From Candidatus Wirthbacteria bacterium (GTDB lineage: Bacteria; Patescibacteriota; CG2-30-54-11): 64,000 nucleotides of DNA. A model generated the notes under the pieces. The model was not told where the DNA came from. It made no database searches and saw nothing but the letters and a program-made list of their open reading frames with translations. Of this stretch, positions 1,930 to 58,530 are shown in pieces (position 1 is the first letter of the stretch; each line of letters opens with the position of its first letter). A program made the position numbers and the translations under genes. The stretch is from assembly GCA_903889905.1 (NCBI GenBank), contig CAISZI010000046.1:853-64852 (forward strand). Direction: 5' to 3'.

Positions 1930-2979
1930 ATGCCGACAATAAACAACCCATCCGCCACCGACTGGCAATCCGCCCTCTCCGCTTTCCCCTCCGCCTCGTT
2001 CCTCCAATCCTGGGCTTGGGGCGAATTTCAGGCTGAGCTCGGGAATAACGTTGTCCGCGTCCTGCTCCAAGATGGCGGTAAAAATGTTGGTCTGGCGCAG
2101 ACTTATGTGGTCAAATCCAAATTCGACTCATTTCTCTATTGCCCGCGCGGGCCGCTGGCCCACAGCGAAGCGGCACTCGGTGAACTGCTGCAAATGCTCA
2201 AGCAGGTGGCCAGAGAGCAAAAAGTCACCTATTTACTGATTGAACCCGATATTGGGACAACGTCATACAATCAGACCGTTTATAATGCGCAAAAACTGAC
2301 ACCACGGGCAGGTTTCATTCAACCGCACAACACCTCCATGGTGTCTCTCCTGGCCGATTTGACAACGATCGAAGCTCAAGTACGCACTTCGACACGACAA
2401 TGCATCAAAGGCGCTGCCAAAAAGCACGTTACCATCGTCTCCTTTGACGATACTGCTCACTGGCAGGATTTTGCCAATCTACTCCAGATCACGGCCGCAC
2501 GCCAAGGATTTATCCCGCACCACCAACGCTATTTACAAAAACAGTTCGAATTCCTGGCCCAAAACGCCATGGCAAAACTCTACCTTGCCCTACTCGACGG
2601 TCAGCCCGTGGCCGGCGCGGTGATGGTTTACTTCAACCAGACCGCCACTTACCTGCATGCCGCGTCCAGCGATGCCGGACGGTCAGTTGGCGCCGCCCAA
2701 CTGCTGGTGATGACCACCATTGCAGACGCCAAAAACAACGGCATGACACAATACGACTTCTGGGGCATTGCGCCCCTAAACCAGCCGGAACACCCGTGGG
2801 CCGGCATCTCGACATTCAAACGCGGCTTTGGCGGCACGGACGTGCATTATCCAGGCGCGTTTGTCTACCCAGTCCGCAAGGTCAGCTATACTTTGCTGGG
2901 TTTGATTACCTTGATCAGACGCAACCGCGCTTTCAAAAGTTTCCAGCGCATTTTGTTTAGGAAAAGCATCAAGCCGTAA
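1930..2979 (+). CDS. FemAB-family peptidoglycan interpeptide-bridge aminoacyltransferase
   Basis: FemAB hallmark motifs SWAWGEF (N-terminal) and STFKRGFGG (C-terminal). A TATACT -10-like hexamer lies upstream. Confidence 0.7.
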   Translation: MPTINNPSATDWQSALSAFPSASFLQSWAWGEFQAELGNNVVRVLLQDGGKNVGLAQTYVVKSKFDSFLYCPRGPLAHSEAALGELLQMLKQVAREQKVTYLLIEPDIGTTSYNQTVYNAQKLTPRAGFIQPHNTSMVSLLADLTTIEAQVRTSTRQCIKGAAKKHVTIVSFDDTAHWQDFANLLQITAARQGFIPHHQRYLQKQFEFLAQNAMAKLYLALLDGQPVAGAVMVYFNQTATYLHAASSDAGRSVGAAQLLVMTTIADAKNNGMTQYDFWGIAPLNQPEHPWAGISTFKRGFGGTDVHYPGAFVYPVRKVSYTLLGLITLIRRNRAFKSFQRILFRKSIKP

Positions 2980-3836
2980 AGTCGGGGCGAGAATACCCAG
3001 TCATAAGCGCCACAAAAGCGGATAAATTCTCCGCCAAAACCTTTTTTGAAACGATGAAAACCCCACCACGGATGGTCAGGACTTTCCTGTTCCGGCGGCA
3101 GGCAGTTCCACATGTCAAAGGTGCGGCAACCGCGCTGTTTGGCCAGCATGATCGTTTCCCAGTACGCCAGATGCGAGGCCATTTTTTCACGCATGCGATC
3201 GGTTGAGGCGCCATAGGGATAGTAGAGATTGCCCTCATAAAACAGCAGAATCAAAGTCGACAGCGGCACGCCCTCAAAGTAGGCGGTAACGATCTCGAGC
3301 ATGTCGTGCTTGACGAACGTGTCAAAAAAAGTCTGGTAATACTTATCGGGGTGGATGACAACGTGGTGACGCTGGTTGGTTTCGTGGAAGAGGTCAAGGT
3401 ATTCGTTGAACATCGCCTGGCTGTGGCCGACCTTGATGGTGATGCCTTTTTTGCGCGCCAGGCCAATGTTGTAGCGTGTTTTGGAATGCATGGCCGCAAG
3501 CAGCTCCTGTTCCGTTTTCTGCAGGTCAATGAAATAGGTAGCGACGCCAAACATGCGTTCCCCACGCCGCACGTCAAATTCCTTGGGCCACTCAAACGTG
3601 TCACTGTTGGGTTCAACTTTGATAAAGATACAGCGTTCGGCTTTGGCTTTGGCTGCAATCGCCTGCCAGTCGATCTCCTGGGGAAACACACGCGGCATGT
3701 AACCAATTTTGAACGGCAAAAATGGCACTTTGTGCAGCGTAAATTGCGCTTTACCAATGTGACAGACTTCCGTGCCCCATTTCTTGCGAAACTCGCCCCA
3801 GGCCGATGACTGCAGCACGTGCGGTATAAATTCCAT
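2886..3836 (-). CDS. FemAB-family aminoacyltransferase, paralog, convergent with the previous gene
   Basis: Motifs SAWGEF and HRFKKGFGG. The preferred start is MEFIPH at 3836, preceded by AAGGAG; the tracked ORF extends to 3875. The 3' end overlaps the convergent paralog by 94 bp. Confidence 0.65.
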   Translation of the reverse strand: MEFIPHVLQSSAWGEFRKKWGTEVCHIGKAQFTLHKVPFLPFKIGYMPRVFPQEIDWQAIAAKAKAERCIFIKVEPNSDTFEWPKEFDVRRGERMFGVATYFIDLQKTEQELLAAMHSKTRYNIGLARKKGITIKVGHSQAMFNEYLDLFHETNQRHHVVIHPDKYYQTFFDTFVKHDMLEIVTAYFEGVPLSTLILLFYEGNLYYPYGASTDRMREKMASHLAYWETIMLAKQRGCRTFDMWNCLPPEQESPDHPWWGFHRFKKGFGGEFIRFCGAYDWVFSPRLYGLMLFLNKMRWKLLKARLRLIKVIKPSKV

Positions 3837-3967
3837 GAATCCAGGACTCCTTGGGCTAAAGGCATGACCAAACAAACGTTCCTGTTTGGCATTATAACAA
3901 AGATCGCCAGGCAGACGAAACGAAACCCTCAGGCCAAATCAAACAAAAGATGATACAATAATAAGAG

Positions 3968-8111: not shown

Positions 8112-11091
8112 TCAGTTAGTTCTTTCGAAGTTTATTTTGTCGTCATTTTTGCCAAAACTAAATTTGACTTTGTCCCAGCCGTTTAAACCCTGGCATTGAA
8201 TGACTTGGTCGCCTTGTCTTTTGAGCCACCAACAGCACAGTACGTAAGTATCGCCGACAAAGTGATCAGTTTGCTTCAAAAAATAAAACGGTTTCATTTC
8301 CCCATCTTTGAGGTCCAGTTCGGCACAAACCTCCCCTTGATCCGAGTGCAGCAAACGATAATAACCACCGAGATTCGCGATGGCTTGTTTGAAGATCAAT
8401 TCCTCTTTGGGATTGGCGGTTTTTTTATCCTTCCGAACAGCTAACACGCCACTCTCCGGCGTGCCTACGGTATTATCAATTAGGTCCATCGGTACGGTGA
8501 TGAGGTCTTGCGGTTGGCGTTCATACATCGTTCCTTCTCGTTCCCCCTTATTGTCGCGGTGATCAATGGGCCTGAGATCAAGTTCCTGCGGCTTTTTAGC
8601 CTGTTGTCCATGTTCAGTAGAAATACCATACAACCCAGGGTCATTCATGGCTAATTTCCCGGGATTATTGATCAACCTGCTGTCAATTTGTATTTCATAC
8701 AATTTGGCCTTGGATGGCTGCCAATGGGCTTGCTTGTCATCACCCGAGAGGCACAAACTGGCGAGGCACATTTTCCCGTCCGCTTTTTTAACCACAAAAA
8801 AGTAATCCTCATGATCTAATTTAGCTTCATTTGCTCTCATATAAGTTTTCTCCAGCAGGCAATATCGTTTATTTGCCACTATTGCTGTAGAATCTCTTCC
8901 GCACAAAACCGCTTCTACCGTAAAACCTTCCTCCAGTAATGTCTGGGAATTACCAAGGTCGCGTAAATTTTCCCGGACTTCTTCACTCTGCATATCTACC
9001 AGGACGAATTTGTCCTCATAACCAAGTTTACAATAGGCATTCTGTTCAAGCAGAGCGAACCAATTCCCGTCGCGGATACCAATGGATTTGGCTGTCGGCG
9101 CCCGGCGGTCAAAATCAGACCACACAGACTCGTCTTCCCACCAACGCTCTCGTTTTCTTTCCATTTCCATTTCCTCGATCCTGCGCACTTCCGCCGCCTG
9201 CTGTTTTCGCTGTTTTTCTTCCTGTCGTTCTTGCAATGCTGCTTCAAATCTGCCATCAATATAGCGTTTCAATGCCTCTTGCCAGGTAAGGTCTTTGTTT
9301 GCCTCAAGCAACTGATCGGCGCGATAGGTAATATCAGCTAATACTCCATTCCTAGTTTCTTTGTCATTAGTAGACGCTTCATCCAACATCTGCTGTAATT
9401 CTTGGGCATAATGTACTGCCATATCGGCATCGCTGAATTGTTGAGCATTGTCGGTCTGGAAATCCATCAGTTTTAGCAAAACCAAGTACATTTTTCTGGA
9501 ATTATTCCATTCAATGACAGGTTCGTCAGGAGCAAAAAACTCCTTTCTGACAGCCTCTGCGGCAATGGGCAGATCCAATTCCGATACTATCTTCACCGTT
9601 GCTGTGACTTCCGGTTGTTCTTTAACCATATCTAGCGGCCGTGCAACGGACAATTGGCCAGAAAGATCGTCAGCATTAGCCTTTGCAGCAGGAACGCCTG
9701 TCTCAGCGGGCGCGGCAACGACGGAACGATCCGTTGTAACCGGTTGCGGCTGTTCGGGTGGCTCCGCCAGAGATATGGAATTAAGCCCAGCAACCTGTGC
9801 GAATGGCATCCTATCAGTATCAGCCGGAGTTGTTGTGGTCTCTTCTGCTTCATGCATTACCGCTTGAGCATACGTTTGGGCTTGCACATGGATATCGTCA
9901 CTAAGGGCTTCCTTTTGCGTCGTTTGCTCGGAAGGGTTTGCCAGGTGTTTTATTCTCTCCTGTAGCTCTAAATCATCCACAACTTTGGTTTGATCTGTGA
10001 TGCCTTCCGTAGCTTTTAGCGTGACTGCTTTTTCAGACTGGTGGATTAGTGCGGATACCCGCTCTTCATAGATTTTTATGGGCTTATACGCCATTGCAGT
10101 TTTGTGGAATGTTTCGGCTACGGCTTTAAGTTCTTCCAATGAAGTATGTGTCAAATACTCACGGTGGACCTCCAGCTCCTCACTGACACTGGACCCATTA
10201 CCATGCCCACGCTTTTCCAAGTCCATGTCACGCCGATACAGCTCAGGATTGTGCTGTTTTAAGTAATCCCGAATTGCTTCCGTATATTTTTGATCGTGCC
10301 GAGGATGGTCGTGTTCTTCTTGCAGGAGCTGGACCAGAACCTTGGCAATAAACTGCTGCAATTCCCGATCACCATCAGCAACCGTTTCGACAAATTGGAG
10401 TTTGTGATCAAGCATGGTTTCGCCACTTTGTACCGAGAACGGAAATAATACCAACCACGCCCGCCGGGCATTGGTCACATCACGCATCAACGTAAAAGAA
10501 AACTGGGCTCCGTCATCCTGGCCGGCGAGCGGGACACTTTCTGTACTGGCATTGATGATACCCCGCAAGACTTCCTGCTCGGCAAAATTGTGCCCATCCA
10601 GAACAATAAAATCCATTTTGCTGTCTCCACTGCTGCGGTCAATCACCCGAATATTCATCGGACTTTGGAACAATTCAATCACTTCGCACTTTTCCAGATG
10701 CGAATAATCGTGATCCGACATAAACGCTGCCACGTCCGCTTCCTGTGCAGGTCCAATTTCCACTAACCGATAATAAATCCCTTTGGACTCATCATAATTG
10801 GCTTCCACCCCATAAGTTTTCGTACCAACCTTGAACGCTCCCAGCAGTTTGGGTCCCCGCTCACGTAATTCCACGATAAAGGACAATTGATCCTTCTCTT
10901 GCGCTGCCACTTCCGCTGTCGTTTCTTTGTTTACTTCCTCATCCACAAGTGCTGCGGCAATGTTCAGCTGGTCAATTGTTGTGGCTAAATCCTCGTCAGC
11001 ACCTTCCGGATTCTCATTCAACAGTAATGCGCCTGCTATCTGTTGGTCTGACTGGTTATTGGATATCTGGGTTTGTACTTGTGTTGGCATC
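8112..11091 (-). CDS. Large acidic hypothetical protein (~993 aa), no recognisable domain
   Basis: Long uninterrupted ORF, no TM segments, GC lower than its flanks. The chosen start is MPTQVQ at 11091; the tracked ORF begins 38 codons further upstream. Confidence 0.55.
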
Positions 11092-11271
11092 TTTTTTTCA
11101 TTAGATACTAATCTAATTATTTTACCATTTTTTGATTTTTCTTGCCAGAATCTGAATCCCGGACACGCTAACACCCGCAAGCACAACGCTCGACAACCCA
11201 ACGCCCGCCAGTTACAATGCGGCTGTTTGTTCCTACGTTCCCAAAACAGTCCATTGTTTGGCTGTTCGAAT

Positions 11272-11288
11272 TTAGTTATTAGAATTTA
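11272..11288 (+). promoter_or_regulatory. 17-mer TTAGTTATTAGAATTTA, with a TAGAAT -10-like hexamer, 7 nt before the purL ATG; identical 17-mer before mreC
   Basis: Exact 17-nt match with 48008-48024. No SD sequence precedes either ATG. Confidence 0.35.
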
Positions 11289-11295
11289 TTGAATT

Positions 11296-14292
11296 ATGCC
11301 CCACCGCATTGAAATCCGCACCGTCACCGAGGATGCCCGCGCCCGGATACTACAGCAAAAAATCACCGCCATGGGCTTTGCTCCGCCCGCTGTGTCCGAC
11401 CTGCAGCTCATCGACGTCTATGCCATCGACAAAGACCTCACCTTCGACGCCCTCAAGCAGTGCGCCGATCTGCTCACCAATCCCGTCACCCAGGCCAGCC
11501 AAATCGACAAGGGCTGGATAGATTTGCCGTTTGACCAGGCGCTGGAAACTGGTTTTTTGCCAGGGGTTACCGACAATGTCGGCAACTCGGCCCAGCAAAT
11601 GATCGAAGACCTGCTCAAAACCAAGTTCGCTGCCGGCGAAGCTGTTTACGCTTCGCAACTCCTTTTGCTCCGCGGCAGCCTGTCCCCTGCCGACACCGAA
11701 AAAATCGGCAGCGCGCTGATCAATCCTCTCATTCAACGTCTGCACATCAAATCCGCGGGCGACTACCTCCAACAAAACGGTATGGACAATCTCATCCCCA
11801 AAGTCCGCATCCAAAGCAAAGCGACTGCCGACACCGTCAACCTGAAGGTAACGGACGAGGATCTGGTCACGATTGGCAAAAAAGGGATTCTGGACCACAT
11901 TGACGATGCTGGCAAAGCCGTACGCCGTGGCCCGCTCGCTTTGGATTTGCCCTCCATGCAGGCGATCCAGGCTTATTTCCGCGATACCGAAATGCGCGAG
12001 CCCACCGACGCCGAGCTGGAGACATTAGCGCAGACGTGGAGTGAACATTGCAAACACACAATTTTTGCTGCCGAACTGGACGAAATCAAAGACGGCCTTT
12101 ACAAACACTATATCAAACGCGCTACCGCAGAAATTCGTGCCAGCAAGGGTAACACCGATTTCTGTGTTTCTGTTTTTACGGACAATTCCGGCGCCATCGA
12201 ATTTGATGAAAACTACCTGATCACGGACAAAGCTGAAACACACAACTCGCCCTCGGCACTCGATCCGTTTGGTGGCGCCGTAACCGGCATCGTGGGCGTG
12301 AACCGTGACACCATCGGGTTTGGTCTGGGCGCCAAACCGATTATCAATCGTTACGGTTTTTGCTTTGCCGACCCACGCACGACGCCCGAACTTTACCGTG
12401 GCAAAGACAAGACTTTTCCAGCTTTGCCACCCCGCAAAATCCTCGATGGCGTGATTGCAGGCGTCAACAGTGGTGGCAACTGCTCGGGTGTACCTACGCC
12501 ACAGGGCTTTGTTTACTTTGATCAACGTTTTAGCGGCAAACCACTCGTGTTTGTCGGCACCATCGGCCTTATTCCACGCACCAGCGCCGGACGTCCAGCT
12601 GACCAGAAACAAGCCCAGGTCGGTGACAAAATTGTTATGGTCGGTGGCCGCGTCGGCAAAGATGGCATCCACGGCGCCACGTTTTCATCCGAAGGTTTGG
12701 ATAGCGGCAGCCCCGCAACGGCTGTCCAGATTGGTGATCCGATTACCCAAAAAAAACTCTCCGATGCGATTGTCAAAGAAGCCCGAGACCTGGGGCTTTA
12801 TAACGCCATTACCGACAATGGTGCCGGTGGACTGAGCAGTTCCGTGGGCGAAATGGCCAAAGACACCGATGGCTGCATTGTTGACCTCGATCTGGTGCCA
12901 CGCAAATACCCCGGCCTCTCGCCTTGGGAAACCTGGATTTCCGAATCCCAGGAACGCATGACGCTGGCAGTGCCAGCTGACAAAGTTGACACGTTCAACG
13001 CCTTGATGACCAAACGTGGCGTGGAGTCGACCGTCATCGGTGAGTTCAACGCTTCCGGCCGTTGCATCGTGCTTTCCGGTGGCCAAAAAGTCGTCGACCT
13101 GAGCATGGATTTCATGCACGACGGCACCCCGCACAAAGTATTGACTAGCACCTACACCCCGGCCAAACACGAAGAACCAGCCTTTGCACAGCCGTCTGAT
13201 CTGGCCAAAACCTTGCAAGACATGTTATCCCGCCTGAACGTGTGCAGCTACGCCTTTATCAGCCATCAATTTGACCATCTTGTCCAGGGCACCGCCGCGC
13301 TGCAACCGCTCCAAGGCAGTGGACAGGTCAACAGCGACGCCACGGTAACACGGCCACTATTTGACTCACCCAAAGGCGTTGTCACGACTCAAGCAATCTT
13401 TCCTGCTTACAGCGACATTGATACTGCGGCCATGGCCACCTACTGCATTGACGCCACCATTGCCCGTGCCACCGCCGTCGGCGCTGATCCCGATCGCATC
13501 GCACTGATGGACAACTTCTGCTGGTGTGACAGCACCAACCCCGAACGCTTGGGGCAGCTGAGACGTGCCGTCGAAGCCGTTTACAACACCGCCGTCGCCT
13601 ACGGAACGCCGCTGATCTCTGGCAAAGACAGCATGTTCAATGATTTCAAAGGTTTTGACAAAGACAATCAACCAGTCTTGCTCTCCGTTCCTCCAACGTT
13701 ACTGGTTTCAGGACTCTCCGTCCTCGAGGATGTGACCAAAGCCGTTTCGCTGGAACCCAAACTGCCCGGCGATCTGGTCTATGTTTTGGGTGAAACCAAG
13801 GATGAACTCGGAGCCAGTGAATATTTCGCTCACATGGGCGAAACCATAAGTGGCCACAAATTCATTGGTAACCAAGTGCCACAAGTGAACACAATATCTG
13901 CTCGCAAACGTTACCAAACCTTACACCAGGCAATTGACAAAAGATTAGTGGCATCAGCCCTGGCCGTGGGTATAGGTGGAATAGGAACCGCGCTCAGCAA
14001 AGCCGTCATTGCAGCTCAGCTCGGCATGGAAATCGATTTGAGCAAAGTGCCCCAATCTGGTATTCCCCGCGACGATCATCTGTTGTTTGCCGAAAGTGCC
14101 AGCCGCCTAATCGTCACCGTTCGCCCCCAAAATCAGTCCGCGTTTGAAGCGTTGTTTGCCGGTCAAACCATGGCACTCATTGGGACCGTAGTTGAAACTC
14201 CAACACTCATCCTGACCACAGCGAGCACCAGCATCAACCTCGAAGTTGCCAAGTTGACCAAAGCGTATCAAGAACCACTGGCCAAATTCTAA
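11296..14292 (+). CDS. purL: Phosphoribosylformylglycinamidine synthase PurL with a ~250-aa N-terminal PurS-like extension (purS-purL fusion)
   Basis: PurL AIRS-domain signature TWSEHCKHTIF plus Gly-rich repeats. The N-terminal extension is PurS-like, and a separate purQ lies downstream. Confidence 0.85.
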   Translation: MPHRIEIRTVTEDARARILQQKITAMGFAPPAVSDLQLIDVYAIDKDLTFDALKQCADLLTNPVTQASQIDKGWIDLPFDQALETGFLPGVTDNVGNSAQQMIEDLLKTKFAAGEAVYASQLLLLRGSLSPADTEKIGSALINPLIQRLHIKSAGDYLQQNGMDNLIPKVRIQSKATADTVNLKVTDEDLVTIGKKGILDHIDDAGKAVRRGPLALDLPSMQAIQAYFRDTEMREPTDAELETLAQTWSEHCKHTIFAAELDEIKDGLYKHYIKRATAEIRASKGNTDFCVSVFTDNSGAIEFDENYLITDKAETHNSPSALDPFGGAVTGIVGVNRDTIGFGLGAKPIINRYGFCFADPRTTPELYRGKDKTFPALPPRKILDGVIAGVNSGGNCSGVPTPQGFVYFDQRFSGKPLVFVGTIGLIPRTSAGRPADQKQAQVGDKIVMVGGRVGKDGIHGATFSSEGLDSGSPATAVQIGDPITQKKLSDAIVKEARDLGLYNAITDNGAGGLSSSVGEMAKDTDGCIVDLDLVPRKYPGLSPWETWISESQERMTLAVPADKVDTFNALMTKRGVESTVIGEFNASGRCIVLSGGQKVVDLSMDFMHDGTPHKVLTSTYTPAKHEEPAFAQPSDLAKTLQDMLSRLNVCSYAFISHQFDHLVQGTAALQPLQGSGQVNSDATVTRPLFDSPKGVVTTQAIFPAYSDIDTAAMATYCIDATIARATAVGADPDRIALMDNFCWCDSTNPERLGQLRRAVEAVYNTAVAYGTPLISGKDSMFNDFKGFDKDNQPVLLSVPPTLLVSGLSVLEDVTKAVSLEPKLPGDLVYVLGETKDELGASEYFAHMGETISGHKFIGNQVPQVNTISARKRYQTLHQAIDKRLVASALAVGIGGIGTALSKAVIAAQLGMEIDLSKVPQSGIPRDDHLLFAESASRLIVTVRPQNQSAFEALFAGQTMALIGTVVETPTLILTTASTSINLEVAKLTKAYQEPLAKF

Positions 14293-20829: not shown

Positions 20830-20855
20830 TAGAACGCTGACATTGTTGTAAAATT

Positions 20856-20883
20856 ATCTATGCATAGTATACTATACATAGAT
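20856..20883. promoter_or_regulatory. 28-bp near-perfect palindrome ATCTATGCATAGTATACTATACATAGAT at the insertion junction upstream of the DUF4143 ATPase gene
   Basis: Symmetric apart from one mismatched position pair. It contains a TATACT -10-like hexamer. Confidence 0.4.
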
Positions 20884-20898
20884 AAAAAAGGAGCGATA

Positions 20899-22368
20899 AT
20901 GGTTAGAAACAAAGCACAAACTGAGGACGTCTTCACTATCGCCTCCCTCATCAACACCCTCGCGACCTACAATCCCTGGTGGACAAATCTGGATTTCGTT
21001 TGGAACAATCCCTCATTCAAACGGGATTCCTTTGCCTCTGGCGTGCAGCACCTGAAGGAAACGCATGGATTAGCCCTTCTCATCAATGGACCACGCCGCG
21101 TGGGCAAGACCACCCTGATGAGACAACTGATCGAATATCTGGTGCAACAAAAACAAGTTTCCCCACAGCGTATCCTTTTTTTCTCCCTTGACGATCCCTT
21201 CATCCAGCAATTTCCAGCCAATGAGCGGGGCGCGGCGTTTGAAAAAATCATTGCCCAATGGGAAGTTACTCTCAATTTCAAAATTGCGACCTCCCCGGAA
21301 CCCGTTTACTGCTTCCTCGACGAAGTCCAACGACTCCCCAATTGGGAACTCTATATCAAACGTTATGTGGATTTGCAGTATCCCATCCGCTTTGTTATTT
21401 CCGGTTCAGCCTCCCACACGATTTTTCGCAAATCGCTCGAAAGCCTGCTCGGCCGCCTGGTTGAGATTTCCCTGCCGCCCTTCACCTTCCGGGAATGGGT
21501 GCGGTATCACCAGCCAGAATGGGCCAACGTCCTCGACAACATGACACAAACCCGCTTCGACATCAATGACGCCGCCGTGGTCAAAACAGTCATAGAAAAC
21601 GTCGTGGACAGAATAGGCCAGAGAAATCTCACCTTTTTTGACCAATTCGCCTCTGCCTATGCCCGCGCTGGGGGATTCCCGCAACTGTGGACCCAGGAAC
21701 CGTTTGAGCGGGCTCAGTTCGTCGACTTGCAGTATGTCCAACGCGTCACACTGGAAGATCTGAGGCTGATCAAGGAAATTCGGCGACCGGAGATTTTTCA
21801 CCAATTTTTGCGCTATGCCTTTGCCCGCACCGGCGAAGAATACAATTTGGAAGCCTTGGCGACAAAGATCAAAACCACCCGAGTTACCCTATCCGGAGCG
21901 CTTCCGTTGCTACTCCAGACTGAACTGATCCGCAAAGTCGACCGCTTTACACACAAACCCGTTCGTCTCCGCACCACCCACGCCAAACTCTATGCCACGG
22001 ACACGATGCTCTATGAAGCCATCACCAAAGTCCCCGCTGATCTGGATGGCACGGACAAAGGCCGGATCGCCGAAACGCTGGTTTACAATACCATCCGACG
22101 CTTTGCCGGAATCACCGACATTACCTACTATCGCACCAAAGATGGCCAGAATGAGATCGATTTCATCGTCCGCGTCGGCCGCTCGCTCGTCCCCATCGAA
22201 GTCAAAAACCGCGCCGACGCCAAAGCCAACAATTCAGACAGTATGGAGGAATTTCTCAAAGAATTTGCCTCCGAAAGTACCTTTGGGATCATCGTCACCC
22301 GAGCCACGCTTGACCTCTCACAAAAGATACTCAAAATCCCCCTGGCAGTCTTTCTTTTATTGAACTAA
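20899..22368 (+). CDS. AAA+ ATPase with C-terminal DUF4143-like region (COG1373 family)
   Basis: Walker A GPRRVGKTT and Walker B CFLDEVQ. RBS AAGGAG lies upstream of the ATG at 20899. Confidence 0.7.
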   Translation: MVRNKAQTEDVFTIASLINTLATYNPWWTNLDFVWNNPSFKRDSFASGVQHLKETHGLALLINGPRRVGKTTLMRQLIEYLVQQKQVSPQRILFFSLDDPFIQQFPANERGAAFEKIIAQWEVTLNFKIATSPEPVYCFLDEVQRLPNWELYIKRYVDLQYPIRFVISGSASHTIFRKSLESLLGRLVEISLPPFTFREWVRYHQPEWANVLDNMTQTRFDINDAAVVKTVIENVVDRIGQRNLTFFDQFASAYARAGGFPQLWTQEPFERAQFVDLQYVQRVTLEDLRLIKEIRRPEIFHQFLRYAFARTGEEYNLEALATKIKTTRVTLSGALPLLLQTELIRKVDRFTHKPVRLRTTHAKLYATDTMLYEAITKVPADLDGTDKGRIAETLVYNTIRRFAGITDITYYRTKDGQNEIDFIVRVGRSLVPIEVKNRADAKANNSDSMEEFLKEFASESTFGIIVTRATLDLSQKILKIPLAVFLLLN

Positions 22369-30468: not shown

Positions 30469-30543
30469 TGGAGCGGGTGACGGGAATCGAACCCGTATCT
30501 TCAACTTGGAAGGCTGACATAATAACCATTATACGACACCCGC
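30469..30543 (-). tRNA. tRNA-Gly (anticodon TCC), intact, with encoded CCA
   Basis: Manual fold of GCGGGTG (acceptor 5'), TCAGC/GTTGA anticodon stem, CTTCCAA loop (U33, TCC, A37), ACGGG-TTCGATT-CCCGT T-arm, then CACCCGC-T-CCA. Confidence 0.8.
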
Positions 30544-51367: not shown

Positions 51368-52705
51368 ATGAGCAATCTCAAACTTCCTCCCCAAAACCTA
51401 GAAGCCGAAGCGTCCATTTTGGGCTCGCTGCTGATTGATAAAAGCGCGATCCTCAAAACCGTCGAAATCCTGCAGCCTGACGACTTTTATTCCGACCACC
51501 ACCGCTACATTTACGAAGCCATCCTGGAACTGTTTGAAAAACGTATCCCCACGGACCAGGTAACCCTGACCGAGGATCTGAAGAAAAAAAAGAAACTCAA
51601 GGAAATTGGCGGCGCCAGTTACCTCAGCGAACTGGTCAATAATGTGCCCGCTGCCGTGCATGTGGATTTTTATGCCCGCATTGTGCACGAAAAAGCCGTG
51701 CTGCGACGACTCATAGGAGTCTCCGAACAGATCGCCGAGATGTCGTTTAATGAACAAAAAGACGTGGCCACGATTCTGGACGAATCCGAACAGGCGGTGT
51801 TTGAAATTGCCCAGAAACAAATCCGTTCCGACTTCACACCCATGAAAACCGTGCTTAGCCAGGCCTTTGACCGCATCGATGAACTGCACAAGAATAAAGG
51901 CAAACTCAGCGGCGTCCCTACCGGCTACACTGACATGGACAAACTGCTGGGAGGCATGCAAAAATCCGACCTGATCATCCTCGCGGCCCGCCCCTCCATG
52001 GGCAAAACCAGCCTGGCCCTCAACATCGCCCAAAACGTTTCGACCAAATACGACATTCCGGTCGGTATTTTCAGCCTCGAAATGTCCAAAGAACAGCTCG
52101 TCGACCGCCTCATCTGCGCCGAAGCCGGCATTGATTTGCGCAAACTGCGTACCGGGTTCCTCAGCGAAGACGATTTCAGCCGTATCGGGCGCGCCATGGG
52201 CATCCTGGGTGAAGCACGCATTTTTATTGACGATACGCCCGGCATCAACGTACTCGAGATGCGTACCAAAGCCCGCCGCCTGCAAAGTGAAAATGGCGTG
52301 GGCATGCTGGTTGTGGACTACCTCCAGCTGATCAGTGGCCGACGGGATACCGAAAACCGTGTGCAGGAAATTTCCGAGATTTCCCGCTCCCTCAAAAACC
52401 TCGCCCGCGAACTCCAGATCCCGGTACTGGCTCTCTCGCAGCTCTCCCGTGCCGTGGAATCCCGTCCCAGCAAAATCCCCATGCTTTCTGACCTGCGCGA
52501 ATCCGGCTCGATCGAACAGGACGCCGACGTGGTTTCCTTTATTTACCGCGAAGACTACTACAACCCCGAAACCCTGCGTCAAAATGTGGCCGATATCATT
52601 GTCGCCAAGCACCGCAATGGTCCGACCGGCAAAATCGAACTCTGGTTCATCAAGGAACAGACCCGCTTCGAAAATTATGACGCCCATGGCCAGGGACCGG
52701 CTTGA
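51368..52705 (+). CDS. dnaB: Replicative DNA helicase DnaB
   Basis: N-terminal PPQNLEAEASILGSLL, Walker A ARPSMGKTS and RecA-like C-terminal motifs. Confidence 0.9.
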   Translation: MSNLKLPPQNLEAEASILGSLLIDKSAILKTVEILQPDDFYSDHHRYIYEAILELFEKRIPTDQVTLTEDLKKKKKLKEIGGASYLSELVNNVPAAVHVDFYARIVHEKAVLRRLIGVSEQIAEMSFNEQKDVATILDESEQAVFEIAQKQIRSDFTPMKTVLSQAFDRIDELHKNKGKLSGVPTGYTDMDKLLGGMQKSDLIILAARPSMGKTSLALNIAQNVSTKYDIPVGIFSLEMSKEQLVDRLICAEAGIDLRKLRTGFLSEDDFSRIGRAMGILGEARIFIDDTPGINVLEMRTKARRLQSENGVGMLVVDYLQLISGRRDTENRVQEISEISRSLKNLARELQIPVLALSQLSRAVESRPSKIPMLSDLRESGSIEQDADVVSFIYREDYYNPETLRQNVADIIVAKHRNGPTGKIELWFIKEQTRFENYDAHGQGPA

Positions 52706-54288
52706 ACTTTGTCACCAAAGGTTTAAAACTTCTCGGTCTGGGGCAGAAACGCGAAGTCGGATTTTTTGCCCTGCTAAGCAGTGCGGCGCTATTGCTGGCA
52801 AACCTGCCAACACTTTTAGCCGCCTGGATGACTCCCCGCGGCGGCTACTTCCTCGGCTATGGGCTATTGCTCAACCGTGCCGATGTTAATTCCTATGTCA
52901 ACAAAATCCTGCAAGGCATGGCCGGCACGCTCAAATTTCAAAGCTACTACACCACGGAACTTCAACGTGGCAGTTATTTCAATGTGTTTTACCTGGCATC
53001 AGGCTTTGTTGGCCGAGCTCTGACCAACAACCCCATGGTGATCTTTCAGGCATTACGACTGACTGGCTCCTTTTTCTTGCTGCTCGGATTATGGAGACTG
53101 CTTGGCCATTTCAAATTGAGTCTGCAGCAAAAATCGCTGGGCTTTGGCCTGTTGGCGTTGCTGCCAAGTATCTTCCCCTGGCTGGGCATGCAGAAAGAGC
53201 TGCTGGAATTCAACATTTTCACCATCCTGACCTACGCTCCCCATTTTATTGTGGGGGCAGCGCTGCTGGTGTGGACGATCTGGTGTTACTTACAGAGCCT
53301 TTCTGCCAAACACAAACAACCCCATTACCTGTTGCTGGCATTGGTGCTCAACCTTATCCAAGTCTTTGTCTATCCCTTCAGCGTGTTGTTGCCACTGCTG
53401 GCCATTGGCGTGCATCTGGTTTTGCTGTGGGTCAGTTCCAATCAAACGCTGCTCCAAAAACTCTGGCTGTGGCTACCGGTGCAGGCCATCCCGCTCATGC
53501 TGGGCTATGGTTATTACCGCCTGCAACAAAATAACGACAGCTTTACCCGCGCCTGGCTCACCCAAAGCCGCACCTCCTCACAAATCAATATCATTTTTGC
53601 CCTACTCGAACTAGGCGTGTTGCTGCCACTTGTCCTGCTTGGCCTGAAAAAATTATGGCAACAACATGCTCCGCTTTCCCCTGTTTCTCTGTTTGTCGCG
53701 GGCTGGATGGCCACCAACCTGATCTCCCTGTATTTACCGATCAACTTTGCCGCCCGGCTTTGTCTGGGTGCGCAAATTCCCTTTGTGCTGATGGCAATCA
53801 TTGGATTAAATACCAACACGATCCTGACCCGATCGGCCAAAGTCACTCTCATCGTGATTGGCATGAGCCTGATGGGCAGCCTGCTTTACCTAAAACAAGG
53901 ATTTAACGACTCGTATCAGGATCAGGGGCTTTACCTGAATGCCCATGAAACCGCTGTCCTCAAGGGGCTTCAACAATTTCCGGTTGGCAGTAAAACCGTC
54001 CTGGCACTGCCACCTCTGGGCAATTACATTCCAGCCGTGGCTGGCGCACGAACCTTTGTCGGACAACGCGATGAGACGCTGGATTTTTTTGCCAAAACCA
54101 TGGCCACGGAACATTTCCTCTCTAGCCAAAACCCGACAGAGCAACAATCCTTTCTGACCACCAATAGGATTGATTACGTCCTGGTGGGCATCAACGAAAG
54201 AAAATGGTTAAATGGTGGGGTGTTACAAATTCCCAACTGGCATTTAGTCGAGCAAAGTGGCGATGTCGAACTTTATGGCAAAAATTAA
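52702..54288 (+). CDS. Polytopic membrane protein, putative GT-C-type glycosyltransferase, paralog 1
   Basis: TTG start overlapping the dnaB stop. More than 10 TM helices and a C-terminal soluble domain. Paralogous to the next gene. Confidence 0.5.
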   Translation: MNFVTKGLKLLGLGQKREVGFFALLSSAALLLANLPTLLAAWMTPRGGYFLGYGLLLNRADVNSYVNKILQGMAGTLKFQSYYTTELQRGSYFNVFYLASGFVGRALTNNPMVIFQALRLTGSFFLLLGLWRLLGHFKLSLQQKSLGFGLLALLPSIFPWLGMQKELLEFNIFTILTYAPHFIVGAALLVWTIWCYLQSLSAKHKQPHYLLLALVLNLIQVFVYPFSVLLPLLAIGVHLVLLWVSSNQTLLQKLWLWLPVQAIPLMLGYGYYRLQQNNDSFTRAWLTQSRTSSQINIIFALLELGVLLPLVLLGLKKLWQQHAPLSPVSLFVAGWMATNLISLYLPINFAARLCLGAQIPFVLMAIIGLNTNTILTRSAKVTLIVIGMSLMGSLLYLKQGFNDSYQDQGLYLNAHETAVLKGLQQFPVGSKTVLALPPLGNYIPAVAGARTFVGQRDETLDFFAKTMATEHFLSSQNPTEQQSFLTTNRIDYVLVGINERKWLNGGVLQIPNWHLVEQSGDVELYGKN

Positions 54289-55846
54289 TTTCAAACGCGA
54301 ATGGCTGTGGGTAATACTGATCAGCCTGCTGGTCGTAGCCCTCGCCAACCTGCCCCATCTGGTGGCTTATCTCTCTATACCCAAAGACTGGTATTTTCTG
54401 GGCCACGGCTATTCACCGGATCGGACCGACATCAATGCCTATTTAGTACGTATTGTCCAAGGCAGACGGGGCAGCTGGCTATTTGAAGACTGGTATACCC
54501 CGGAAGCTACCGGCAAAACCCTGTTTTATCTTATTTACCTCGCACTCGGCCACCTGGGAGCATTGCTGCGACTCAATGATCGTGCCACGCTGTTGCTCGG
54601 CCGGCTACTTAGTACCCCATTTCTGCTCAGTGGCTTGTATGCCCTGATTTCAACCTTTTTGTCCCGACAACGCGATCGACTCCTGGCTTTTCTGGCACTG
54701 ACACTGCCCTCTAGCCTGGACATGTTTTTGACCCCGTTTAACCTGGTCAGCTCCACCCAGGTGATCGAAACGCAACCATTTTTGACCATTGGCTATGTGC
54801 CGCATTTTTTGCTGGGACTGGGGGCATTATGCTGGTCTTTCTGGGCTTACTGGAAATGGCGGGAACAAGGTCAGGCCAAATGGTTCTGGGTAATGGCGAT
54901 GATGCTGGCACTTCTGGGGATCAGTTATCCGTTTGCGCTGGCTACGGTGGGCGGGACGCTGGCCGTCTTTGTCGCGTTGAGTTGGCTCAAACACGAACCA
55001 TTTGCCTTCAAAGCCGAGTTCAAAAAAATATTACTGGCCGCTTTGGTCATTATCCTGGTCGGTCTGTATTTTCTTTTGACCTCCTGGATCAACCCCTATT
55101 ACCGCACCTGGTGGTGGCATCAGCAAACAACGAGAGTGCTCAATCCCCTGCAACTTTTGAGCGGCTATGGTCTGTGGGGTTTTATGGGGCTGACCCTCTG
55201 TTTTTACTGGCTCTGGACACGACGCCACATTGCCAAACTGGACTTATTGGTGATGAGCTGGTTACTGTTTTCACTGTTTGCCTACTACAGCCCAATCATG
55301 AATTTCCGGCGTTCCGTCATCGGCTGGGGCATTCCATTGGTATTGCTGTGTTTCAGGCATCTCCCGACACTGCTGCCACGCAAGTTCTGGCGCTGGATTT
55401 TGATCCTCTCCACGCTGCTGGCGTTCGCTACGGTAACCCAACTGCTGGGAACCGCGATCGGTGACACCCTCCTCGATGGCCAAAGTGCGCTTGATCCTGC
55501 CGAATACTCGACCCTGCTCTACCTCAAAAAGCATGAACCCACCCCGGTCGTCGTGCTCACCAAGTCATTGATCGGTAACTACCTGCCTGCCGTAGCCGAA
55601 CAAAAAGTCGTTTACGGAATTTATGGTGAAACGCTCAATTCTGACGAAAAACTCAAAGAAGTCTGGGCTTTTTATCAAACGCCTGATGACGCGGATCACC
55701 TGAAACTATTGCAGCAATACCATGTCAAATACCTTTATTTTGGCTGGGAAGAATCCATTGGCCAGCGCTTTCGACCCGACCTGGCGCCGTATCTTCAGCT
55801 TGTTTACCAAAACAGTTATGTCAGACTTTACCGCGTCCAACTTTAA
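54263..55846 (+). CDS. Polytopic membrane protein, putative GT-C-type glycosyltransferase, paralog 2
   Basis: Same architecture and alignable N-termini (ANLPHLVAY... versus ANLPTLLAAW...). The start is ambiguous among 54257 (GTG), 54263 and 54275. Confidence 0.5.
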   Translation: MSNFMAKINFKREWLWVILISLLVVALANLPHLVAYLSIPKDWYFLGHGYSPDRTDINAYLVRIVQGRRGSWLFEDWYTPEATGKTLFYLIYLALGHLGALLRLNDRATLLLGRLLSTPFLLSGLYALISTFLSRQRDRLLAFLALTLPSSLDMFLTPFNLVSSTQVIETQPFLTIGYVPHFLLGLGALCWSFWAYWKWREQGQAKWFWVMAMMLALLGISYPFALATVGGTLAVFVALSWLKHEPFAFKAEFKKILLAALVIILVGLYFLLTSWINPYYRTWWWHQQTTRVLNPLQLLSGYGLWGFMGLTLCFYWLWTRRHIAKLDLLVMSWLLFSLFAYYSPIMNFRRSVIGWGIPLVLLCFRHLPTLLPRKFWRWILILSTLLAFATVTQLLGTAIGDTLLDGQSALDPAEYSTLLYLKKHEPTPVVVLTKSLIGNYLPAVAEQKVVYGIYGETLNSDEKLKEVWAFYQTPDDADHLKLLQQYHVKYLYFGWEESIGQRFRPDLAPYLQLVYQNSYVRLYRVQL

Positions 55847-55933: not shown

Positions 55934-56464
55934 ATGTCTACCCCCATTTCCGATCCGTTACAGGCCATACTGGCCTTGCTCTTTGCGAATCCGGCACCAC
56001 TGGAGCTCCAATCTCTAGTCAGCTTGCTTGGCATCAGTGCAGTCACCATCAATGAACTCATCAACAATCAACCACTTACTGGCCAACATGCCTTCATCAT
56101 CCAGCGCCACGACAATCTGGTGCAGCTGGCCACCAACCCGATTTACAGCCAGCTCATCCGTGACATGCTCAACCTCGAAAGTGCCAAAGAGCTCACCCCG
56201 GCAGCCAAGGAAACGCTTGCCATCATCGCTTACAAACAACCCATTGATCGCTCTTCACTGGAATCGATCCGTGGCCTGGATTGCCGCCGCACCCTGCAAA
56301 GTCTCAGCCACAAAGGCCTGATCCAGCAAAGCTCCGGCATGCCCGAGGGCGGCGATCCAAGGTCGTATTATTATGAAGTCAGCCTGAAATTCCTGGAATA
56401 CTTTGGCCTCAAAGACAAAGACGAACTCAAGACCAAACTCATGAAACCCACTGCCACTTTATGA
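55934..56464 (+). CDS. scpB: Segregation and condensation protein B (ScpB)
   Basis: PLQAILALLFA N-terminal signature and tandem winged-helix, 176 aa. Confidence 0.75.
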   Translation: MSTPISDPLQAILALLFANPAPLELQSLVSLLGISAVTINELINNQPLTGQHAFIIQRHDNLVQLATNPIYSQLIRDMLNLESAKELTPAAKETLAIIAYKQPIDRSSLESIRGLDCRRTLQSLSHKGLIQQSSGMPEGGDPRSYYYEVSLKFLEYFGLKDKDELKTKLMKPTATL

Positions 56465-57438
56465 AACGTTTTTTTGCCAACACCATTACTGTCTGCGCGC
56501 TTTGCCTTGGTATTGGGCTGCCCTGGACAACCAGTTTTGCCAATCCGGTCGTGGAACAATGGGACAGCTGGCTGCTCGGGCAAACCGTGACTCCCAAGCC
56601 ACAGGTCAGCGCGCAAAGTTATATCATCACCGACGCGCATTCTGGTCAAATTCTACTGGGGCAACAAATCCATCTGCAACGCAACTGCGCCAGTCTGACC
56701 AAGCTCATGACCGCGCTGATTGTGGTCGAAAACCACACCAACCTCGACGAAGTGGTGTCGGTCCCGCCTGAAGCTCCCGCCGTGGATCCCAAAAAAATGG
56801 GCCTGCGTACCGGTGACCACATGACCCTGCGCAGCCTGATCAAAGGCGCCCTGATTGAATCTGCCAATGACGCAGCCATGGCACTGGCCATCACCACAGG
56901 TGGCGACAAGACGACATTTGTTAACCTGATGAACCAAAAAGCCAAAGTGCTAGGCATGCTCGACACGCACTTCACCAATCCCATCGGCTTTGATGACGAC
57001 TCTCCCGTCTCCAGTGCGCAGGACATCGCGACTTTGAGTTTCTATGTCATGCGCAACCCGGTATTACACGACATTGTCGGAACCAGTTCCGCACAGGTGA
57101 CCAACGCCGACGGTACCTATCACTTTTTGCTCAAAACCACCAACGACCTCTTGGGCCAAAACGGCACGATTGGCATCAAAACCGGTTCCACACCCGAAGC
57201 TGGCGAAACGCTGGCGCTGGACGTGCGGCGCGACAACCTGGAGGTAATCATTGTCCTGTTTGGTTCTCTGGACCGCTTTGCCGATGGCCGTACGCTCACC
57301 ACCTATGCCCTCAACCATTTTGTCACCAAAACCTTTGCGTTGCCGGTCCCCCAGTTCAACCCAGCCAACCTGTTCTCCGCCAAATCCCTCTGGGCCGGCC
57401 TCAAATGGCTCCCATTTAGCCTCACCGTCGCCAAGTAA
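56461..57438 (+). CDS. D-alanyl-D-alanine carboxypeptidase (S11, PBP5/6-like)
   Basis: Signal peptide plus motifs SLTK (SxxK), SAND (SxN) and KTGS. Confidence 0.8.
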   Translation: MKRFFANTITVCALCLGIGLPWTTSFANPVVEQWDSWLLGQTVTPKPQVSAQSYIITDAHSGQILLGQQIHLQRNCASLTKLMTALIVVENHTNLDEVVSVPPEAPAVDPKKMGLRTGDHMTLRSLIKGALIESANDAAMALAITTGGDKTTFVNLMNQKAKVLGMLDTHFTNPIGFDDDSPVSSAQDIATLSFYVMRNPVLHDIVGTSSAQVTNADGTYHFLLKTTNDLLGQNGTIGIKTGSTPEAGETLALDVRRDNLEVIIVLFGSLDRFADGRTLTTYALNHFVTKTFALPVPQFNPANLFSAKSLWAGLKWLPFSLTVAK

Positions 57439-57475
57439 TTCCAAGAGAACTTATCGAGTGGCGTCCCCGAGCCTA

Positions 57476-57843
57476 GGGGAGAAACAGTTTTAGGTGCGGC
57501 CGGTTCGCGCCCATACAATAGTTGACGGCATTGAATAGAACTTCCGACAGTGTCGCTAGGTTCCTGCTTTTTACGACCTCACCTAAAACTGTTTCTCCCC
57601 TGAGCTTCTTTTTTGTTCACATAATCTGACCCGTCCAGAAACAAGACTTTTCCGGATTCATTCTGCCTCCGTCTCCGCCCGACCAACGCCTGATCATGAA
57701 ACACCACGGCCCACCCGAGCCTGTTTCCGGGTGCGACCGTAAAAAGCAGGAACCTAGCGAATAGAACGGAAGAATTATTCACCCGCCATCAATCTCCGGA
57801 CGGGCGCGAATCGGGCGTACCCGGAAACAGGCTCGGGTGGGCC
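57476..57843. repeat. Chain of three interleaved perfect inverted-repeat pairs: A/A' 21 bp (57476-57496 / 57580-57600), B/B' 22 bp (57554-57575 / 57738-57759), C/C' 25 bp (57708-57732 / 57819-57843)
   Basis: Reverse complements checked by hand. Order is A..B A'..C B'..C', and each right arm is preceded within 5 bp by the left arm of the next pair. A' is followed by a T-run. Confidence 0.6.
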
Positions 57844-57868
57844 GGAACTCTCCCTTCCCAAAAAGATA

Positions 57869-57903
57869 CAAAAAAGGCGCCCCGTCATCCGACAGGGCGC
57901 CTT
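57869..57903 (-). terminator. Rho-independent terminator for the VirB2-like gene (GGCGCCC/GGGCGCC stem plus T-run on the minus strand)
   Basis: Minus strand reads AAGGCGCCCtgtcggatgacgGGGCGCCTTTTTTTG. Confidence 0.55.
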
Positions 57904-57928
57904 GGCAGAATGCAGTGGAAATCGAAAA

Positions 57929-58357
57929 CTATTGGACGGGGACAAACCCGGCGTTGGTGACGATGTTTTTGTTGACGCCCAGCAGTGAGAAGACGAGGTT
58001 GACGGCCAGGTAGCCGATGACGGCAATGGCGATACCGATAATGGCGTGGGTGATGCCTTCCTTAGCTTCACCGGCTTTTTTGGAGTCGCCACCGGCGGTC
58101 ACGTATTTGACACCAGCGAGCAACATATAAATCACGGCCAGAACGCCAATGAAACCCATCATGTAGTTGAGCAAATTATTGATCAGCACACGCAGGTCGG
58201 TGACGCCCTGGATCGGGTTGGTCAGGGAAAAGGTGGAAGATGCGGCAGCCGGAGCGGCGGCAGGAGCAGCAGGTGCCGCAAATGCTACGCTCACTGACAC
58301 CATGGTGCCCACCACAAACGTCTGCACTGCGACAATTGCCTTGTTGAGTTTTTTCAT
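57929..58357 (-). CDS. TrbC/VirB2-like small membrane protein (pilin-like: signal peptide plus two TM)
   Basis: Ala/Pro-rich signal region followed by two hydrophobic helices, 142 aa. Confidence 0.5.
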   Translation of the reverse strand: MKKLNKAIVAVQTFVVGTMVSVSVAFAAPAAPAAAPAAASSTFSLTNPIQGVTDLRVLINNLLNYMMGFIGVLAVIYMLLAGVKYVTAGGDSKKAGEAKEGITHAIIGIAIAVIGYLAVNLVFSLLGVNKNIVTNAGFVPVQ

Positions 58358-58530
58358 TGACGATTTCTCCTTGTCAAGATTGTTGGCTAATTACCTGATA
58401 AAAGATAGCTGCTTTTGGTAGCAAAGTCAACGCCCATAGGCACTCATGCAGAAACAGGCATTTTGGTTTATCTTTGCTCAAATTGGCTAAATCCATTATA
58501 ATTAAAAGATTTAGATTTGCAATAAAGGAA

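Follow-up and report, generated by a model that had tools for sequence, protein, structure and literature searches.

Why are two genes that end towards each other in a Wirthbacteria-like genome separated by a chain of long and perfect inverted repeats, and what might these repeats do? The convergent gap lies within the window, the 64-kb stretch of DNA that was analyzed as a whole, and extends over 490 nt (57439-57928), from the stop of a dacA-like gene to the stop of a gene for a T4SS-pilin-like protein. The chain of repeats spans 370 nt of it, so that the length of 370 bp given in the first-pass annotation holds for the chain and not for the intergenic gap. The dacA gene closes a row of genes on the + strand (mreB-mreC-mreD-PBP2-dnaB-x-x-scpB-dacA), and the order from mreB to dacA recurs in the Wirthbacteria-like contig L021. 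The DacA protein shares 45-54% identity with its nearest database entries, the one at 54% being from JGI sample 3300075153, and the pilin-like protein is 77% identical to the L021 pilin and 72-77% identical to the pilin of CG2_30_54_11 (Candidatus Wirthbacteria). The source organism is related to Candidatus Wirthbacteria and belongs to a barely sampled lineage.

Several other features of the window were recorded along the way. Upstream of dacA, the + strand carries two tandem paralogous genes of unknown function (52702-54288 and 54257-55846), which encode proteins of 528 and 529 aa. L021 has a single 537-aa gene at this place, to which the two paralogues are 28% and 36% identical, and the only family that they match, weakly, is the chlor_Arch_YYY domain. 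Two genes of the FemAB family (1930-2979 on the + strand and 2886-3875 on the - strand) run towards each other, with an overlap of ~90 nt between the 3' ends of their longest ORFs. Finally, a nested palindrome, TTATCTATGCATAGTATACTATACATAGATAA, is found at 20847-20885, where an AAA_14/DUF4143 ATPase gene (20860-22368) begins; with ~19% GC, the palindrome is very AT-rich compared with surroundings of ~50% GC.

The presence of three perfect inverted repeats in the convergent gap, in the order A..B-A'..C-B'..C', was reported in the first-pass annotation and is borne out here (Table 1). All arms are indeed perfect, but at 22, 23, and 26 bp they are slightly longer than the 21-25 bp first given. 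When up to three mismatches are allowed, shuffled windows give an expectation of 0.00-0.01 occurrences for each arm sequence, compared with exactly two observed. The inverted repeats are real and non-random, and chance is excluded as their source. No comparable long hairpin was found elsewhere in the 64-kb window. The arms of neighboring pairs do not overlap: A' (from 57580) follows the end of B at 57575, and B' (from 57738) follows the end of C at 57732. This makes the pairs interleaved in a pseudoknot-like manner, and not rivals for the same bases. The earlier claim that adjacent pairs exclude each other as hairpins must accordingly be given up at the level of shared bases, but retains some truth in that two nearly isoenergetic global folds exist.

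An assembly artefact was considered and rejected, as the arms fall below the k-mer length of the assembly, the core between each pair of arms is unique, and the region is interior to a 129-kb contig. A 620-nt contig from another sample (L008; ENA ERZ18626558) is 100% identical to window positions 57861-58480. It ends at 57861, 17 nt short of the outer edge of unit 2 (defined below), and the units lie outside its span; it may stop there because the palindromes broke the assembly, or simply because coverage was low.

The three pairs, which the first-pass annotation described as different from one another, belong to one larger pattern. A fourth inverted match, together with the 52 nt over which B/B' can be extended, shows that the whole of the left part of the chain corresponds to the reverse complement of the whole of the right part. 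Judged by its sequence, the region is made of two paralogous, oppositely oriented copies of one hairpin unit of ~137 nt, with 100 nt between them. The arms A and A' form the stem of unit 1, and C and C' form that of unit 2. B and B' are the two copies of the best-conserved core block, and they make up an inverted repeat solely owing to the opposite orientation of the units. Rather than three independent elements, the locus contains one unit twice, and the B/B' repeat arises as a by-product.

Table 1. Positions and properties of the repeats, hairpin units, and flanking genes in the window
Feature	Position	Strand	Properties
Inverted repeat A / A'	57475-57496 / 57580-57601		22 bp perfect; reaches 33 nt at 88%
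Inverted repeat B / B'	57553-57575 / 57738-57760		23 bp perfect; reaches 52 nt at 77%
Inverted repeat C / C'	57707-57732 / 57819-57844		26 bp perfect; reaches 33 nt at 94%
Fourth inverted match	57493-57529 / 57785-57821		37 nt, 70%; absent from the first-pass annotation
Hairpin unit 1	57470-57606	sense on +	arms A/A', 22 bp; 83-nt core 57497-57579
Hairpin unit 2	57707-57844	sense on -	arms C/C', 26 bp; 86-nt core 57733-57818
Block B in unit 1	57553-57575	+	invariant 23-nt block of the core, TCGCTAGGTTCCTGCTTTTTACG; repeated in unit 2 as B'
Block B' in unit 2	57738-57760	-	unit 2 copy of the invariant core block
T-run TCTTTTTTGTT	57607-57617	+	directly after the unit 1 stem; proposed termination point of the dacA operon
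T-rich tail GTGGTGTTTC	57697-57706	-	after unit 2; accepted by the terminator scan; aligns with the unit 1 T-run
Central part of the spacer	57618-57696	.	within the 100-nt spacer 57607-57706; no symmetry, convincing ORF, or promoter-like site
dacA-like D-Ala-D-Ala carboxypeptidase gene	56461-57438	+	Pfam Peptidase_S11, 2.4e-52
T4SS-pilin-like gene	57929-58357	-	convergent with dacA; Pfam PF18895, 8e-11
Intrinsic terminator of the pilin gene	57874-57903	-	ordinary type; terminator scan: 13-bp stem, 4-nt loop, then TTTTTTGTATC

On either strand, each unit is predicted to form one long hairpin, the stem of which continues via an internal loop into a short inner helix, and the invariant 23-nt block falls in a mostly unpaired region of the predicted fold. 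The folding energies are -63.4 kcal/mol on the + strand (z -7.4) and -66.8 kcal/mol on the - strand for unit 1, and -84.0 kcal/mol on the + strand (z -8.8) and -82.8 kcal/mol on the - strand (z -7.4) for unit 2, with z-scores from -7.0 to -8.8 for both strands in comparison with dinucleotide shuffles. The minimum-energy fold of a transcript of the whole region, from either strand, consists of the two local hairpins. The arm of unit 2 is itself a small imperfect palindrome and in this resembles REP sequences. The units contain only short ORFs that lack ribosome-binding signals, with frames that differ between the two units, and none of 10 candidate ORF products is present in a collection of 15 billion proteins. 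No sigma-70-like promoter was found in 57300-58100. A word in the spacer, CATGAAACA (57693-57701), matches one half of the parS consensus, tGTTtCAcGTGAAAca. It lies just downstream of scpB and the other parS half-site is absent, so that the match is probably due to chance.

Comparison of the two copies revealed that stems and cores have diverged in different ways. When each unit is read in its own orientation, unit 1 on + and unit 2 on -, the two can be aligned over their full length with a mean column identity of 76%; identity within the cores is 78% for aligned bases and 72% when gaps are counted. Between the units, 20 of the 39 predicted base pairs have changed on both sides and still pair, a count that comes from one pairwise comparison (n = 2 copies) and could just as well result from a mutational process that builds palindromes. 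In the inner helix, two changed pairs keep their pairing (G-C to A-U and G-U to C-G). The perfect stems contain no G-U pair among their 48 pairs, because the arms are exact reverse complements. Differences within the cores are spread unevenly, and an invariant run as long as B has a probability of ~0.003 given the divergence of the core. At a core divergence of ~14% per lineage, the chance that 44 or 52 stem bases remain untouched is ~1e-3 and 3e-4, respectively. As the cores have diverged by 22-28% and the stems are nonetheless perfect, the palindromes must have been maintained or remade after the divergence. We infer that the symmetry of the arms is probably maintained in the DNA or by very strong selection, and that it goes beyond a mere ability to pair as RNA. 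This pattern points to upkeep of the palindromes by templated correction from arm to arm, by a recognition that is symmetric in sequence, or by strong selection on the hairpin.

The relatives of the source organism show a different arrangement at this place. In L021, dacA is followed by cmk, a gene for a 487-aa protein, and then the convergent pilin gene (9691-11897, compared with 57439-57928 in the window), and the junction with the pilin gene is an 87-nt convergent gap with a small and ordinary bidirectional terminator. Neither cmk nor the 487-aa gene occurs anywhere in the 64-kb window, the hairpin units stand in their place, and tblastn detected no remnants of either gene in the gap. On the right of the pilin gene, the window contains genes for DJ-1/PfpI, uppP, and an unknown 467-aa protein, and L021 contains a beta-CASP RNase gene and dnaE. 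Neither the units nor other long hairpins were found in the syntenic relatives L021, L030 (Wirthbacteria-like), L023, and L024, and the nearest relative has a 113-nt gap after its pilin homologue, which is too short for one unit. In L023, a distant CPR relative, a long inverted repeat follows dacA (10934-11037), with 35-nt arms that are 77% complementary and 34 nt apart; it is AT-rich and its sequence is unrelated to the units.

Searches for the arm and core sequences elsewhere, which had been proposed in the first-pass annotation as a check, returned no other copy in the 64-kb window or in the scanned collections. Within the window, a covariance model of both units (R1), run with filters off, found only units 1 and 2, and blastn-short found no partial copies. 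The large collections were scanned by one exact 18-nt word each, which diverged relatives would escape: the core word TAGGTTCCTGCTTTTTAC had 7 matches in GTDB genome contigs and 12 in JGI metagenome contigs, all of them single and with unrelated flanks, as expected for chance matches. Among viral contigs (IMG/VR), the core word had no match, arm A had one (by chance), and arm C had none; a two-block pattern gave four matches, all of which were rejected by the covariance model. A blastn search of the whole gap against phages and plasmids returned nothing relevant. In four related, AT-rich peat metagenome contigs (L010, L012, L016, and L020), 26 of 29 bases match the unit, with no other similarity, and we judged this likeness to be coincidental. 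The 18-nt word of these contigs sits in a small hairpin that is followed by a T-run.

To the reading that we prefer we assign a probability of about one half. It holds that the locus contains two copies of a palindromic terminator-like module that arose by local inverted duplication and are placed tail to tail between the convergent genes. The second copy would have been made by this duplication rather than by transposition, and the long stem with its U-tail would act as an oversized intrinsic terminator and as a hairpin that protects the 3' end, as its anatomy suggests. Both T-rich tails fall in the central spacer, and each unit thus faces its nearer gene. Unit 1, which faces transcription from dacA, may serve as the terminator and possibly as a 3' stabilizer of the mreB-dacA operon. 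Unit 2, which faces transcription from the pilin side, may provide a weaker back-up stop behind the pilin gene's own terminator, and both units together would insulate the two convergent transcription units.

In support of this role, unit 1 starts 31 nt past the dacA stop and consists of a GC-rich stem that ends at 57606 and is directly followed by a U-tract, TCTTTTTTGTT. The terminator scan detected no other terminator-like structure on the + strand after dacA, which leaves unit 1 as the sole candidate on this strand, and the suggestion that A/A' and the T-run after it form an intrinsic terminator on the dacA side is plausible. The tail of unit 2 on the - strand is also T-rich enough to pass the scan. 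On the other side, the interiors of 83 and 86 nt are far above the standard 3-8-nt loops of intrinsic terminators, and the units themselves were not reported by the scan, which was limited to loops of this size. In addition, the U-tail of unit 2 is weak (UGGUGUUUC), and a pure terminator role leaves the strong conservation of the 23-nt block unexplained.

Several families of hairpin repeats offer points of comparison. Correia repeat-enclosed elements consist of 26-bp inverted repeats around a directional conserved core, with a total length of 104-157 bp, and form mRNA hairpins that are bound or cut by RNase III in Neisseria (PMC2649163). The units resemble these elements (CREE / NEMIS) in their inverted repeats of ~26 bp, directional core, length class, intergenic location, and long hairpin. 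However, CREE arms are conserved across at least 100 copies and are accompanied by TA target duplications, whereas the units have arms that differ, no flanking duplication, two known copies that are adjacent, and no sequence similarity to CREE. REPINs, which RAYT transposases mobilize, are hairpin doublets with a spacing of ~71 bp and compensatory changes, and their new copies insert into or beside existing ones (PMC3116915). They share with the units two inverted arms around a spacer, a long hairpin with compensatory changes, an extragenic location, and clustered copies. In REPINs, however, the terminal REP 16-mers are invariant and the spacer varies, and the units show the reverse, with a kept core and diverged ends; moreover, no RAYT is recognizable in the 64-kb window, which contains two copies of the unit. 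SPRITE is a pneumococcal repeat that resembles Rho-independent terminators and lies near the 3' ends of genes, and its co-option as a terminator has been proposed (PMC3049150). Like SPRITE, the units have an over-long stem followed by a U-rich tract and are found near 3' gene ends, here between convergent genes, but the pneumococcal repeat is AT-rich, with a duplex of 18 bp and ~30 copies per genome, whereas the units are GC-rich and have an interior of ~85 nt and two copies. Taken together, the units resemble hairpin repeats and are closest in anatomy to Correia elements and also to REPINs, and they fit none of these families.

This resemblance raises the question of whether the units are non-autonomous mobile elements of the MITE, Correia, or REPIN type, moved in trans by a transposase from another locus, the second copy of which landed beside the first. 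The anatomy of the unit and its position at a synteny breakpoint, where cmk and the 487-aa gene of the relative are missing, agree with such an origin, but we consider it unlikely, as the terminal arms, which should be the part bound by a transposase, are the least conserved region of both copies. Direct repeats are absent from the flanks of either unit (GGCGTCCCCG|..|TCTTTTTTGT for unit 1 and TGAAACACCA|..|GAACTCTCCC for unit 2), and the stacked MITE-like insertions suggested earlier are backed neither by target-site duplications nor by extra copies, full or partial, in the 64 kb or the scanned collections. Among ~50 ORFs across the window, Pfam searches, with NCBIfam added for 10 ORFs without a Pfam match, recognized no transposase, including Y1 transposases, and no RAYT, recombinase, or RT, which agrees with the earlier observation that no recombinase or RT gene is adjacent. 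A retron ncRNA would be expected beside an RT gene, and an RT domain is absent from all scanned ORFs of the window. An interior of ~85 nt is also short for a retron msr-msd. The same breakpoint could instead mark a functionless scar, in which the palindromes would be undecayed by-products of template switching or of a rearrangement that removed cmk and the 487-aa gene. The location of the units exactly at the synteny break fits this account, as do their absence from every relative examined, the mere 113 nt after the pilin homologue in the closest sampled relative, and the perfect Watson-Crick stems without G-U, which DNA-templated copying predicts. We nevertheless regard a scar as quite improbable, given that the stems are perfect around cores that have diverged by 22-28%, that the differences are non-random and spare the 23-nt block, and that orientation and T-tails match the directions of the flanking genes. 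We also asked whether the core derives from the pilin gene's 3' end and rejected this idea; a 27-nt match with 74% complementarity is not significant, as 25 of 300 shuffles scored equally well.

A conserved core within a variable but paired stem is also the pattern of a small RNA, and the units might be a pair of paralogous genes for structured small RNAs, or RNAs processed from 3' UTRs, with a functional core and a stem that serves as a scaffold or an RNase III signal. The very stable folds, the mostly unpaired invariant block of 23 nt, and the inner helix with its two changed but still paired positions would suit such RNAs. The chances of this reading are slim, however, as promoter-like sites are absent, neither folding energy nor G-U pairs mark one strand as the transcribed one, and homologues on which covariation could be assessed were not found in the scanned collections. 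With Rfam 15 at the gathering threshold, the only match in the window is a tRNA (30472-30543), and in E-value mode the region matches generic hairpins like microRNA precursors at up to 28 bits, compared with thresholds of 64-150. The large structured ncRNA proposed in the first-pass annotation consequently lacks Rfam support, and the G-U-free stems point to symmetry at the DNA level. The remaining readings center on B/B', which might compete with A/A' and C/C' for termination or might recombine (B x B') and flip the segment 57576-57737. When B/B' pairing is forced, the global fold has an energy of -163.6 kcal/mol, only 2.9 above the -166.5 kcal/mol of the two local hairpins, and in a transcript that ends at 57818 the B/B' foldback is the minimum-energy structure. 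This cost is small because unit 1 then pairs with unit 2 along its length, and alternative structures must be expected for any inverted pair of similar hairpins. In addition, a transcript that ends at 57617 folds into the complete A hairpin, and B' is made at least 121 nt after the U-run 57607-57617, too late to prevent termination at unit 1, so that an attenuator or antiterminator, and with it the earlier idea that B-B' competes with the A-A' terminator, is rejected on kinetic grounds. Since no arm bases are shared, both stems and a 23-bp loop-loop contact could coexist in one read-through RNA. In geometry, a perfect 23-bp inverted repeat around 162 bp resembles invertons (phase-variable invertible promoters such as fimS), and on paper an inversion turns both hairpins into direct repeats and abolishes them. 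Unlike invertons, this locus has no nearby recombinase and no promoter-like site within 57576-57737; Pfam and NCBIfam recognized no recombinase in the window, and the repeat is the product of a larger inverted duplication, which alone fully explains B/B'. Nothing was found that speaks for the invertible segment once suggested here, and competition or inversion through B/B' appears highly improbable.

An even more remote idea, to which we give hardly any weight, is a bistable terminator switch in which B x B' exchange flips 57576-57737, swaps A' with C, and so erases both convergent terminators. If true, the switch would open the way for read-through from either the cell-wall operon or the pilin gene into the other, and the divergence of the stems and the invariance of B/B' would be features of its design; its counterpart at the RNA level would be two hairpins locked by a 23-bp loop-loop kiss.

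If, as we prefer to think, the units are duplicated terminator-like modules, the locus would be a further case of long palindromic intergenic modules that end convergent genes, a result that would be useful for annotation and unsurprising. The more unusual trait, which we put forward as a lead from the comparison of these two sequences (n = 2), is an apparently conserved directional core inside stems that diverge and yet remain perfectly Watson-Crick paired, the inverse of the pattern in MITEs and REPINs. If this trait recurs in more copies, it would indicate a mechanism that keeps symmetry at the DNA level or an unrecognized class of hairpin elements.
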